DNA from: Antedon mediterranea
Lineage: Eukaryota > Animalia > Echinodermata
Length of the DNA: 64,000 nt
Assembly: GCF_964355755.1 (NCBI RefSeq)
Contig: NC_092675.1
Span: 7,187,812-7,251,811, forward strand
Reading direction: 5' to 3'
In this document: in pieces, positions 27,897 through 58,001 of the stretch
Layout of the letters: the number at the start of each line of letters is the position of its first letter
Numbering within the stretch: the first letter of the stretch is position 1
Position numbers and translations under genes: made by a program
Notes under the pieces: generated by a model
What the model was told of the DNA's origin: nothing
What the model saw: only the letters and a program-made list of their open reading frames with translations
Databases searched by the model: none

Positions 27897-27974
27897 TTAA
27901 AAATTGGGATTTGCATAAGTATCAAAACGTCCCAGATAGCTTGAAATGATATCATAACAAAAAATGTATTGGTC
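27897..27974 (-). CDS. Gene A terminal coding exon
   Basis: [29 protein letters not shown]. Confidence 0.92.
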   Translation of the reverse strand, partial: DQYIFCYDIISSYLGRFDTYANPNF

Positions 27975-55600: not shown

Positions 55601-58001
55601 ATAAAATTTGGTGTGTGTTTTATCACTAGTAATAGCATATTATGTTCTCAGCAACTTTTAATAAATGAAATCAATACAAAATATAAGTTTTTGTAAAATG
55701 TGTAAAGTGGTAGTAGCGATAATTGCAAATCAATGTTGAGCATCGTTTTTAAACATCATAAAACAGACGTAACTTTAGTAAATCACAGTATAAAGTGATA
55801 AAAAATGAAAATAAAAGATTTAGTGTGTAAACCGAGATGGTTATGTACAACCATTGCATTATACAAGTTCTGGTTATAACAACTATAGACATTCAAGTAT
55901 AATGACATAATCAACATTTTTATTATAATTTGTAATCTTTATAGTTGAGAAATAAAAAAGTAGACATACAGTATGATACTTTGACAAAAATGTTACTTAC
56001 AATCCTGAACGGTTCGAGTATCAACGATTGTAGTGTACACAATAGTTTCTTCACCTCCAACAATACCTTTACAGTAATAAGCACCAAACGCATTTTCACT
56101 TTCAATAGGAATATATAATACTCTAGCATCAGAAAATTTACCACTATGAACTGTCCCAGGCTGTTCTGCAGTAGAATCAGAGCTCGCTATCTTAAATGCT
56201 CTTCCCAATGTTATAGTCGTACCAGCTTCACTTGGGTAGCATTGGTACACTCCCCCATTAGCAAAAGGTGATTTTTGGTTAAAAACTGTTAAATGTGTAC
56301 TGGATACAAAAACTATAATAAAATAATTATTTAACAATTTGATTAGGGTTACATTATTAATTGTATAAGAACTGAGTGTATTCTTGCCATTTGAGGTTAC
56401 TTATCACATGCTATCGTAATTAGTTCTACTGAATGGAATTGATAATAAATGATATTTAATGGTAATAACAAATTGTTATATTGAACATGAACACAATATT
56501 AGGATTTTGTGCAACAAAGTTGTTGATTGATTCTCATGTGGTATGCACATTCTGTAACTGTCCTACTCTGCATCTAACATTGGAGAAAACTGCCTATTTG
56601 AAATTACATAGCCCTCTTGTTTTTTTTAATGGCCTAGCCCTCTGGTTTTTTTAATAGCCTAGCCCCCTGTTTTTTATTGGCCATAGTCCCCTGGCCTTTT
56701 ATAGCCTTTAACATTGATTAAAAGTGCAAACTGTGTATTAATGAACAAGTTTACTTTACGAAAGAACAATAAAACAATATTTAGGCATTGAAGATTATTT
56801 CATGAGTTGAAATATTTACTGGAGCCTATTAACTATTGAATAGATTAAATGGATTACATGCCATCAACTCTTGCGAAAATGTTATTATTAAATAGAATAT
56901 TTAAAAAAAAAATAAAGTATGTCCCAATATATAAAAATTAAACGTGTTAATTAAAAAATTTAATCATGGAGTTACTTCCATGATTCAATAGTAAAATCAA
57001 TGTTAGTTTTTCAACTGGAACCATTAGCTAGTCTAAATGTTCTTAAAGTCATTTTAAATGTCCCAGATCATTCTGCTGCCGTTCATTTTGATGGCTAGTT
57101 ATGAACACTTAAATACTTAAATATAATTTTTACTCACCATTGTACACTTATTGTGTAATATGAGGCCCAATACTAGGATGCGATAACGATCAATGATAAA
57201 CATATATTTTTAAGCATAATGGATATTTTATAGTCTAGGATAAAACCTTTTGAATTATTTTGTTTCATAGAACATCATCGATCATCGTCGTAGTATAAAT
57301 GGGCCTTTAGGCTGGATTCAATCACCATACCCTACTGTATAGTATATGGTAGCCGATGCACTGTGACCATTACAAACACTATAATTTCATTATGAAATTT
57401 TTGAATTTGTAGCAATATCCAGAATTGTATTGCATATTATAAGGCCTATTCCTGGCCTCTAAGTGGTATTCTGTGTCTCGATAGAATATGGGCCATTTGC
57501 ACTGCATGAATAGTGAAAAATTCAAGAAAATGTAGTAGTAAGCCTAGATAAAATAGAGGCATACTGAGAGGGTGTAATGGTATGAATGGGTAGGGAATTG
57601 TTAATTAGCAACTCCCTGGTAATGGTATGGGTGTTTGTTTTGTTGTTTGTTTTTGGGGTGGATGGGTGATTGTGTGTCCTGCATAGATGAACTGATATTG
57701 GTAGCCTGGTTCAACCAAAAATAGGTCATTAACTATGTTGTTACAATTCTGGAGAGGCCTATTGTTATTTGGGATCTGGAACTTCCCTGTTCAGAATCCA
57801 GGAATTGAACGCTAGGACTAGGAGGTAGAACTAGAGTAGTAGTCAGGCCTACACACCACCACCTATAATCGTTCAAGGAAATATAAAAACAACATAAAAG
57901 ATATAAAACTGCAAAATAGTAAATACATTACCAAATTTTAAAAGTAGTCCAATGGAAGCGAACTGAATTAGAACCCGGAAATAATTTAAACAATTCGCCA
58001 T
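27897..58001 (-). CDS. Gene A: receptor-type protein tyrosine phosphatase with Tie-like ectodomain (SP-Ig-Ig-EGFx5-Ig-FN3x3-TM-PTP D1-PTP D2), 32 coding exons, about 1531 aa
   Basis: Manual splicing at GT-AG junctions gives consistent phases and 4596 nt. D1 motifs: [55 protein letters not shown]2 motifs: [33 protein letters not shown]. Confidence 0.93.
28229..28364 (-). CDS. Gene A exon 31, PTP D2
   Basis: [11 protein letters not shown]...[21 protein letters not shown]. Confidence 0.94.
28938..29095 (-). CDS. Gene A exon 30, PTP D2
   Basis: [16 protein letters not shown]...HPIVVHC. Confidence 0.92.
29548..29682 (-). CDS. Gene A exon 29, PTP D2
   Basis: SYAKYW...KYGPLVV...ITIREFSI. Confidence 0.9.
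29812..29946 (-). CDS. Gene A exon 28, PTP D2
   Basis: [29 protein letters not shown]...VVMLN. Confidence 0.94.
30608..30684 (-). CDS. Gene A exon 27, PTP D2
   Basis: DRNRPFL...EYINASFVD. Confidence 0.93.
31545..31662. repeat. (TA)n microsatellite with ACCCCTAA interruptions
   Basis: Direct reading. Confidence 0.95.
32659..32758 (-). CDS. Gene A exon 26, PTP D2
   Basis: [17 protein letters not shown]. Confidence 0.92.
33137..33276. mobile_element. Short palindromic MITE; second copy 38632-38757
   Basis: TGTCTACACTATCAAA...TTTGATAGTGTAGACA in both. Confidence 0.8.
33492..33641 (-). CDS. Gene A exon 25, D1-D2 linker
   Basis: [19 protein letters not shown]...IEEEFE. Confidence 0.94.
33838..35272 (-). 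mobile_element. Non-autonomous Helitron
   Basis: Minus strand reads A|TCTATATATA...hairpin...CTAG|T with no TSD; internal part 33965-34345 recurs at about 25066-25460. Confidence 0.8.
35423..35558 (-). CDS. Gene A exon 24, PTP D1 P-loop and Q-loop
   Basis: [13 protein letters not shown]...[12 protein letters not shown]. Confidence 0.95.
36141..36295 (-). CDS. Gene A exon 23, PTP D1 WPD loop and catalytic Cys
   Basis: [15 protein letters not shown]...PTLVHCS. Confidence 0.95.
36818..36943 (-). CDS. Gene A exon 22, PTP D1
   Basis: EKCKKYWPD...YADYKIRSL. Confidence 0.93.
37262..37359 (-). CDS. Gene A exon 21, PTP D1
   Basis: [32 protein letters not shown]. Confidence 0.94.
37562..37598 (-). 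CDS. Gene A exon 20, PTP D1
   Basis: [13 protein letters not shown], 37-nt exon. Confidence 0.92.
37790..37866 (-). CDS. Gene A exon 19, PTP D1
   Basis: YDHSRVVL...GYINAC. Confidence 0.93.
38115..38358 (+). mobile_element. L2-like LINE 3' end
   Basis: KTYG..TF..AA.RVWNDLP.SIR...[10 protein letters not shown] then (TAT)n tail. Confidence 0.75.
38409..38496 (-). CDS. Gene A exon 18, PTP D1
   Basis: [13 protein letters not shown]. Confidence 0.92.
39225..39472 (-). CDS. Gene A exon 17, juxtamembrane and start of PTP D1 region
   Basis: ...YDEEMYQNV...[11 protein letters not shown]...LQHEYG. Confidence 0.88.
40041..40105 (-). CDS. Gene A exon 16, juxtamembrane
   Basis: [21 protein letters not shown]; phase 2-1. 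Confidence 0.85.
40473..40569 (-). CDS. Gene A exon 15, transmembrane helix
   Basis: [23 protein letters not shown] followed by basic RRRK in the next exon. Confidence 0.92.
40581..40830. repeat. Tandem duplication of about 110 bp
   Basis: CAAATGTTAATTAACG... repeated about 2.3 times. Confidence 0.85.
43303..43375 (-). CDS. Gene A exon 14, FN3 domain 3 C-part
   Basis: [24 protein letters not shown]. Confidence 0.85.
43838..45192 (+). mobile_element. Helitron/Helentron-like non-autonomous element
   Basis: 3' hairpin AATTCGTCATAGTGACGAATT followed by CTAG-TT; left boundary uncertain; contains a tRNA-like segment at about 44780-44860. Confidence 0.45.
46800..47385 (-). mobile_element. CR1/L2-type LINE 3' fragment in gene A intron
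   Basis: [19 protein letters not shown]...[23 protein letters not shown]...FSNRI...WNALP. Confidence 0.9.
47400..47768 (-). mobile_element. Helitron-like repeat copy adjacent to LINE fragment
   Basis: Homologous to about 17035-17350; TC 5' terminus. Confidence 0.6.
47971..48191 (-). CDS. Gene A exon 13, FN3 domain 3 N-part
   Basis: PPAPEV...[14 protein letters not shown]...GDYEVS. Confidence 0.87.
48577..48793 (-). CDS. Gene A exon 12, FN3 domain 2 C-half
   Basis: YMISY...[20 protein letters not shown]. Confidence 0.9.
49488..49567 (-). CDS. Gene A exon 11, FN3 domain 2 N-half
   Basis: [27 protein letters not shown]; phases fit neighbours. Confidence 0.8.
50196..50498 (-). CDS. Gene A exon 10, FN3 domain 1
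   Basis: [11 protein letters not shown]...[12 protein letters not shown]...[26 protein letters not shown]. Confidence 0.92.
51260..51517 (-). CDS. Gene A exon 9, third Ig-like domain
   Basis: [17 protein letters not shown]...; 258 nt, phase 1-1. Confidence 0.85.
51899..52027 (-). CDS. Gene A exon 8, EGF-like
   Basis: [41 protein letters not shown]. Confidence 0.92.
52635..52787 (-). CDS. Gene A exon 7, EGF-like
   Basis: [38 protein letters not shown]. Confidence 0.92.
53686..53817 (-). CDS. Gene A exon 6, EGF-like
   Basis: [43 protein letters not shown]. Confidence 0.92.
54016..54168 (-). CDS. Gene A exon 5, EGF-like (Tie-type)
   Basis: [14 protein letters not shown]...[19 protein letters not shown]. 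Confidence 0.92.
54558..54689 (-). CDS. Gene A exon 4, EGF-like (Tie-type)
   Basis: [42 protein letters not shown]. Confidence 0.92.
55233..55499 (-). CDS. Gene A exon 3, Ig-like domain
   Basis: [10 protein letters not shown]...LIWRKDG...ENAGMYEL...FIELIVR; 267 nt. Confidence 0.9.
56001..56312 (-). CDS. Gene A exon 2, N-terminal Ig-like domain
   Basis: ...YQCYPSE...FGAYYCKG...; 312 nt, phase 1-1. Confidence 0.9.
57932..58001 (-). CDS. Gene A exon 1, signal peptide
   Basis: [23 protein letters not shown] followed by GTAATG donor, phase 1; homologous to paralog exon 24091-24154. Confidence 0.85.

Follow-up and report, generated by a model that had tools for sequence, protein, structure and literature searches.

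The 64,000-nucleotide stretch of Antedon mediterranea contig NC_092675.1 analysed here (positions 7,187,812 to 7,251,811; hereafter the window) contains a gene whose product joins a Tie-type receptor ectodomain to a tandem protein tyrosine phosphatase (PTP). The gene runs on the minus strand, a point on which the original prediction was silent, from the ATG at 58001 to a stop codon that ends at 27897. Its reality as a single receptor reading frame is confirmed. By sequence and by predicted fold, the head of its ectodomain is homologous to Tie2, and the gene is a member of a tandemly expanded echinoderm family. This receptor PTP (RPTP) variant is real, widespread in echinoderms and apparently under-recognised.

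The gene model comprises 32 exons and 31 introns, all GT-AG, with a single open frame of 1531 amino acids; exon borders were first placed approximately and then adjusted to AG/GT sites. Reading from the N-terminus, the model protein has a signal peptide, two Ig domains, five EGF repeats, a third Ig domain, three FN3 domains, a transmembrane (TM) helix and two PTP domains (D1 and D2), and together with Pfam it reproduces exactly the architecture and coordinates first proposed. The ectodomain packs 11 folded modules into about 830 residues. Besides the signal peptide, one hydrophobic stretch of TM length is present, with a hydropathy peak of 3.3 near residue 847. Phase-1 introns flank each ectodomain module, a pattern permitting exon shuffling, while FN3-2 and FN3-3 are each split internally by a phase-0 intron.

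Exon 1 (57932..58001; this and all other exons of the gene are on the minus strand) contains the ATG and the larger part of the signal peptide (hydrophobic residues 7-29), and is also found in RefSeq XP_071953854.1. A Pfam run on 18 single exons assigns exon 2 (56001..56312) to Ig_Tie2_1 (E 0.0014, 19.4 bits, under the cut-off of 25), and a homologue aligns this Tie-type Ig1 with Tie2 Ig1. The Ig matches of exon 3 (55233..55499, Ig2; Ig_3/I-set) and exon 9 (51260..51517, Ig3; I-set, E 0.004) are both below cut-off, with further support from the homologue's alignment with Tie2 for Ig2 and from an Ig fold in the homologue's predicted structure for Ig3. Exons 4-8 encode eight cysteines apiece. 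Exons 4-6 (54689-54558, 54168-54016 and 53817-53686) match Pfam EGF and correspond to Tie EGF1-3, and exons 7-8 (52787-52635 and 52027-51899) encode two additional eight-cysteine EGF-like repeats, absent from Tie1/2 and kept in homologues. The three FN3 domains occupy exons 10-14 (50498-50196, 49567-49488, 48793-48577, 48191-47971 and 43375-43303), with fn3 matches on exons 10 and 12 and a family hidden Markov model as the sole support for the third. Y_phosphatase was detected on 6/6 PTP exons tested, and exons 7, 8, 13 and 17 gave no match in the single-exon Pfam scan. The human TEK Ig1 and EGF1 exons are, like exons 2 and 4 here, 312 and 132 nucleotides long.

Sequence and structure comparisons both lead to Tie2. 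Exon 5 has Tie2 EGF2 as its top PDB match (E 6e-05). Exon 2 alone gave no significant match in a PDB sequence search and 0/134 candidates in a word-index search; the ESM Atlas yielded nothing usable. The Tie-type EGF signatures originally read in exons 4 and 5 stand as quoted in exon 5, and in exon 4 with one cysteine more than the quoted pattern. The crinoid homologue P0008 (49% identical to the model) finds Tie2 as its best PDB match, colinear over Ig1-Ig2-EGF1-3, at E 5.8e-46; titin follows at 1e-21. For the Anneissia homologue P0003, 54% identical over the ectodomain, the top three Foldseek matches of an AlphaFold2 structure (27-row alignment; predicted local distance difference test score, pLDDT, 81) are all Tie2. 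The whole-model match has a high root-mean-square deviation of 17 A; the head alone superposes well on Tie2 2gy5 (Z 32.2, 3.0 A over 304 residues; next non-Tie Z 11.4), in a comparison where the model is the homologue's and the Tie2 structures were probably within the AlphaFold training set. Pfam, PDB sequence matches and the predicted fold of homologues thus uphold the proposed Tie homology of the ectodomain. A MEGF/SCARF-type EGF array was also considered and ruled out, since the Ig-Ig-EGF1-EGF2 head matches Tie2 specifically.

Measured against the Tie family, the protein has both the Ig1-Ig2-EGFx3 head and the Ig3 plus three FN3 domains before the TM helix, but no cytoplasmic kinase: a juxtamembrane segment and two PTP domains fill the region up to the stop. 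Two more EGF repeats and a multi-copy tandem family further set it apart from Tie1/Tie2 (TEK) and from sea-urchin SpTie1/2. In Tie2, Ig2 is the angiopoietin-binding domain. Positions of Ig2 that match the Tie2 angiopoietin contacts are not conserved in the P0008 and family alignments, so an angiopoietin-like ligand, as originally suggested, is possible but not supported.

On the cytoplasmic side, exon 15 (40473..40569) encodes the TM helix, and exons 16-17 (39225..40105) a juxtamembrane segment with two Tyr-x-Asn motifs at Y897 and Y936. D1, on exons 18-25 (33492..38496), keeps the phosphotyrosine (pTyr) loop KNRF, WPD, HCSAGVGR and an intact Q loop. D2 lies on exons 26-32 (27897..32758), together with a PTPRA-like Tyr-Ala-Asn tail and the stop codon, and reads KNRV in its pTyr loop (Val for Tyr), lacks WPD and has HCSNGVGR. 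By established PTP chemistry, these motifs predict an active D1 and a D2 that is weak or inactive. With its signal peptide, one TM helix, D1 carrying pTyr loop, WPD, HCx5R and Q loop, and degenerate D2, the protein has the features of a classical tandem receptor PTP.

Searched against PDB, D1 and D2 together score highest with PTPRA (498 bits), then PTPRE (491) and LAR (466), no R2B tandem structure being among the matches listed; D1 alone favours the R2B receptors kappa (303), T (299) and mu (287) over alpha (253). The alignment with PTPRA reaches the C-terminal Tyr-Ala-Asn tail, and the Val in the D2 pTyr loop is common to both. Tyr-x-Asn occurs within the last 14 residues of 19/27 D2-bearing sequences, one of them probably by chance, while several others are truncated. 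In a PTP tree of 28 invertebrate rows, the three Antedon proteins fall together (support 98). Neither this tree nor the head tree contains vertebrate rows, because the homologue searches returned no vertebrate Tie or RPTP.

Independent models and sequencing reads bear on whether all these exons form one gene. The RefSeq protein XP_071953092.1, an Antedon mediterranea record labelled 'uncharacterized', matches residues 194-1531 of the model without a difference and shows the same ectodomain-TM-D1-D2 splice chain, but exons 1-2 and the greater part of exon 3 are missing from it; although predicted independently, it derives from the same DNA. The exon 2-3 junction of the model is gapless against P0003. 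Read run X1 contains 7% of the sampled words, and its RNA status is a guess; no run covering the stretch is recorded as RNA. Its contigs end at exon borders and its depth tracks exons, reaching 91.6 per exonic base on exon 17, 92.6 on the TM exon and 52-63 on exons 2-6, with means of 1.4-3 in three exon-free bins. The match of a 705-nucleotide contig starts and stops precisely at the two borders of exon 17, with 4 mismatches over 248 nucleotides, and exons 10, 11 and 12 share one contig depth. A 1777-nucleotide contig places exons 2 and 3 side by side, but at only ~87-90% identity to the gene it probably derives from a paralogue. Among the X1 contigs listed, none spans ectodomain to PTP, exons 13-15, or FN3-3 to TM, so support for the FN3-3/TM junction comes from RefSeq, homologues and the open frame.

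It is very improbable that the ectodomain exons and PTP exons are two adjacent genes joined by a gene-model artefact, since this idea, which draws on the lack of a single listed transcript contig across exons 13-15 or the entire chain, on RefSeq models visibly fragmented or cross-joined within this array and on many Anneissia records that stop without an effector, is opposed by an open frame with canonical splice sites over 31 introns, a RefSeq chain identical from Ig2 through the stop, equal X1 depth on the TM and juxtamembrane exons, and a domain order repeated in 22 proteins from 10 species.

The same head recurs well beyond Antedon. Searches with crinoid ectodomains gave 23 and 59 matches and were followed by iterated domain hidden Markov models, which together yield 64 different proteins in which the Tie EGF1-EGF2 signature is present, leaving out isoforms from cluster look-ups and four repeat-driven matches. 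A PTP is found in 22 of these, a kinase in 5 and GPS + 7tm_2 in 2, while 35 have another or no effector; the ratio of PTP to kinase is biased, as phosphatases made up 4/10 query rows in the 59-match search. PTP-bearing heads are present in crinoids, asteroids, echinoids, holothuroids and the sea spider Nymphon (10 species), and no ophiuroid one was seen among the 64 head proteins. The Nymphon protein comes from a noisy gene model with a reverse transcriptase (RT)-like insert in D1; its head matches Tie2 at E 1.8e-42 and is followed by a tandem PTP whose D1 is nearest R2B. At least nine Antedon records of the family lie on one 31.7-Mb contig. This breadth rules out a species-unique shuffle, and the lone exon-shuffled receptor first envisaged gives way to a tandem family that extends across four echinoderm classes and a sea spider. 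Records of the family are named PTPRF-like, mu-like, alpha, T-like, Tie-1-like or uncharacterized, and such names hide the link to Tie.

Relatives differ in what surrounds the head. Some carry a C-type lectin or F5/8 galactose-binding domain N-terminal to it; Strongylocentrotus purpuratus P0063 combines a C-type lectin, the Tie head and a PTP. In Apostichopus japonicus, P0014 and P0020 join a Tie head to GAIN/GPS and a secretin-type seven-transmembrane domain, the layout of an adhesion G-protein-coupled receptor (GPCR) with a Tie ectodomain. The Branchiostoma hybrid P0090 is a Tie-head kinase model with internal fibrinogen C-terminal and SAM domains, and may be either a receptor with a built-in ligand-like domain or a fused gene model. 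Branchiostoma P0029 and P0030, annotated as NOTCH2 or Delta-like, place Tie Ig2-EGF1-3 ahead of a Notch-like EGF array. P0004 and P0005 were dropped as repeat-driven matches, and the comparison of architectures excludes P0098 and P0101, whose FN3/Ig matches are generic.

Effector exchange is most visible in the starfish Patiria. There, P0027 (PTP) and P0095 (kinase), accessions XP_038048537.1 / XP_038048240.1, share 59% identity over 1166 amino acids of ectodomain and TM (61% over 1103 in a second comparison) and sit on contig(s) of equal size. The kinase domain of P0095 scores 281 bits with Tie2 versus 243 with RET, in a list where EGFR, matched over two stretches, ranks first, and by these scores is of Tie type. 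Its head nests within PTP-bearing heads with support 100/100, and the R2B-type stalk Fn3_PTPRU is detected at 33.5 bits in P0095 and 24.1 in P0027 (cut-off 24.7). An RPTP-type stalk combined with a near-matching phosphatase ectodomain suggests that in P0095 a kinase was grafted onto a phosphatase ectodomain. Effector types are scattered over the 64-row head tree. In an approximately unbiased (AU) test on a 29-row subset of heads with known effector, from which P0032, P0023, P0020 and P0055 were left out, a single kinase-head clade is rejected for 6 rows versus 23 (p-AU 4.7e-05) and for the echinoderm-only set of 5 rows (1.3e-05). Kinases that share this type of ectodomain, for which the original prediction proposed a search, are shown in starfish but not in Antedon.

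Tentatively, and at somewhat less than an even chance, the Antedon gene can be read as the phosphatase member of a receptor system in which it is paired with Tie-type kinases. A multimeric extracellular ligand or cell-surface partner would bind the head and co-cluster the receptor with kinase-bearing relatives. D1, as the presumed active enzyme beside a regulatory pseudophosphatase D2, would then strip phosphotyrosine from the kinase or its substrates, and the Tyr-x-Asn motifs may recruit Grb2/Src-type SH2 proteins. Duplication and cytoplasmic module swaps would keep producing kinase, active-phosphatase and dead-phosphatase forms of similar heads, with the dead paralogues possibly acting as decoys. 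Immune paired receptors offer an analogy, and coelomocytes or epithelia would be the most plausible setting. According to PMC12113024, sea-urchin SpTie1/2 are expressed in coelomocytes and the axial organ, and PMC13409769 places a Tie-2-like kinase on the starfish coelomocyte surface along with a protein named 'RPTP F-like'. A precedent is VE-PTP, which restrains Tie2 (PMC6017057).

Several points weigh against this pairing. No crinoid is among the Tie-head kinases (0/5 in the 64 head proteins), none was found in Antedon, and even the closest kinase heads share no more than 37-44% identity with the Antedon protein. Shared ectodomains can stem from gene conversion or gene-model error without any co-function, and the effector-free heads (35/64) may be split gene models. 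The AU groups were set by domain content but named after the earlier 64-row tree had been seen. Oligomerisation or dimer formation has been proposed to inhibit some RPTPs, as PMC6017057 states, so ligand binding could turn off the phosphatase. The best tandem match, PTPRA, is an activator of Src and does not damp signalling (PMC7959691). Given that D2 and the tail resemble PTPRA, the output could be Src activation and not the 'inhibitory' one originally suggested.

Two live rivals, each unlikely on present evidence, are partly compatible with the paired-receptor reading. In one, ligand or adhesion would bring D1 to Src-family kinases, where it would remove the inhibitory C-terminal phosphate, while the phosphorylated tail recruits Grb2/Src, giving an activating output as in PTPRA. 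The tandem scores, the alignment through the Tyr-Ala-Asn tail, the shared D2 Val and the frequency of Tyr-x-Asn tails favour this, and PTPRA itself removes Src pY527, activating Src, while its Y789 tail recruits Grb2 and Src (PMC7959691). However, D1 alone prefers R2B, YxN tails are present in R3 receptors too (PMC5336234), and near-identical kinase and phosphatase ectodomains are left unexplained.

The other rival, similarly doubtful, is a stand-alone cell-contact or non-self sensor without a kinase partner, whose expanded, diversifying heads would recognise like cells, matrix, or microbial or glycan ligands, and whose clustering would modulate a phosphatase of constitutive activity at junctions in the manner of R2B. 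An R2B-like D1, relatives with lectin or galactose-binding domains before the head, the arrangement of the family in tandem arrays and the EGF arrays of related mollusc PTPs are consistent with it. The Antedon gene, however, has no lectin or MAM domain, and Ig2 is among the better-conserved domains across crinoid paralogues (75% vs 60-79% elsewhere), unlike what strong diversifying selection on Ig2 would leave.

On the longer time scale, it is conceivable, if improbable, that Tie-head phosphatases are an ancient bilaterian RPTP subtype that escaped notice through its loss in vertebrates; the Nymphon protein, with the head and an R2B-like D1, fits this view. The head would at first have been common to a kinase/phosphatase pair. 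Echinoderms would then have made an interchangeable receptor kit of it, with kinase, adhesion-GPCR and live or dead phosphatase members, and PTPRA/E or R2B of vertebrates would descend from this lineage, their head having been lost or replaced.

The claim that no vertebrate RPTP subtype has this ectodomain survives comparison with R2A, R2B and R4, whose ectodomains all differ from it. R4 receptors have a short glycosylated ectodomain without folded modules, and PTPRA/PTPRE, for all their likeness in D1+D2, the D2 pTyr loop and the C-terminal tail, thus lack the long modular ectodomain of the Antedon gene. PTPRK/M/T/U (R2B) resemble it in D1 and, through Fn3_PTPRU, in the stalk of its starfish relatives, but the Antedon gene lacks MAM and any Fn3_PTPRU match, carries EGF repeats, and has exons 2-14 fully tiled by Ig, EGF and FN3. 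R2A receptors (LAR, sigma, delta) combine Ig and FN3 without EGF repeats; the Antedon gene has five EGF exons, and its PTP score with them is below that with R4. VE-PTP (PTPRB, R3) is alike as a receptor phosphatase opposing a Tie kinase, but unlike in its FN3-only ectodomain, single PTP and lack of a Tie head, with a much lower PTP similarity (197 bits). Mollusc EGF-array RPTPs (Haliotis, Mytilus, Dreissena) share EGF repeats and a tandem PTP, often with a YxN tail, yet they have no Ig-Ig-EGF1-EGF2 Tie head, and the seven in the PTP tree keep to their own side (support 92).

No description of this architecture was found in the literature searched, which excludes most subscription papers, supplements and the 2006 sea-urchin survey. 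That RPTP survey, by Byrum et al., is reported to contain lectin- and EGF-bearing sea-urchin-specific groups; the names of its groups were not found in the literature searched. Relatives of the family, such as P0063, were probably catalogued in it already. The passages considered from PMC5336234, PMC11788884 and PMC8870065 make no mention of the architecture.

The family adds an RPTP architecture beyond the eight subtypes of humans, one concealed by misleading database names, and presents the Tie ligand-binding head as a mobile module joined to opposite enzymes. Near-matching kinase and phosphatase ectodomains offer a direct test of one ligand read with opposite signs. They are also relevant to how Tie/angiopoietin signalling arose before there were blood vessels, and they draw attention to an expanded receptor family, so far uncounted, in echinoderm immunity and regeneration.

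Within the window, a tandem paralogue starts 3.7 kb downstream of the gene, also on the minus strand. Its exon 1 (24091..24154) is a 100% match to residues 1-22 of RefSeq XP_071953855.1, its Ig1 exon 2 (15568..15873) shares 87% nucleotide and 77% amino-acid identity with exon 2 of the gene, and its Ig2 exon 3 (2328..2597) shows 89% nucleotide identity with an intact frame; the paralogue extends past the window. XP_071953854.1 links the gene's exon 1 (58001-57932) to the paralogue's Ig1 exon (15873-15568), 42 kb apart, and ends at that exon's border; this join reflects either cross-mapping between the copies or genuine splicing over an entire gene.

Antedon paralogue P0010 (XP_071953398.1), on the same contig, is plausibly the continuation of this in-window paralogue. 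It is 71% identical to the gene overall, with 86-96% in EGF3-Ig3 (93-96% in EGF3-4), 38% in the TM helix and 71% in D1, a gradient that suggests gene conversion of the ectodomain. Its D1 is likely dead, because the P-loop Arg is replaced by Ser and the Q-loop Gln by Tyr.

The window also holds mobile elements. A broken duplicate of the Ig1 exon (23426-23267 + 18729-18674, minus strand) is interrupted by a 4.5-kb insertion (23265-18730) that has ~700-bp terminal inverted repeats of 93% similarity and what looks like a 3-bp target duplication. The insertion's broken open reading frames (ORFs; 20850-22052, plus strand) end in a Cys-rich motif and have no Pfam match; it presumably resembles an Academ-type DNA transposon. 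Retroelements include an RVT_1 ORF (12351-13001, plus strand) and a retrotransposon-like element (7076-10430, minus strand) whose ORFs, among them RNase H-like ones, are broken. Inside the gene, intron 13 holds a retroelement remnant, an RT-like ORF (47472-46852, minus strand) with no Pfam match, and a ~110-bp tandem duplication occupies 40842-40582, just upstream of the acceptor of the TM exon.

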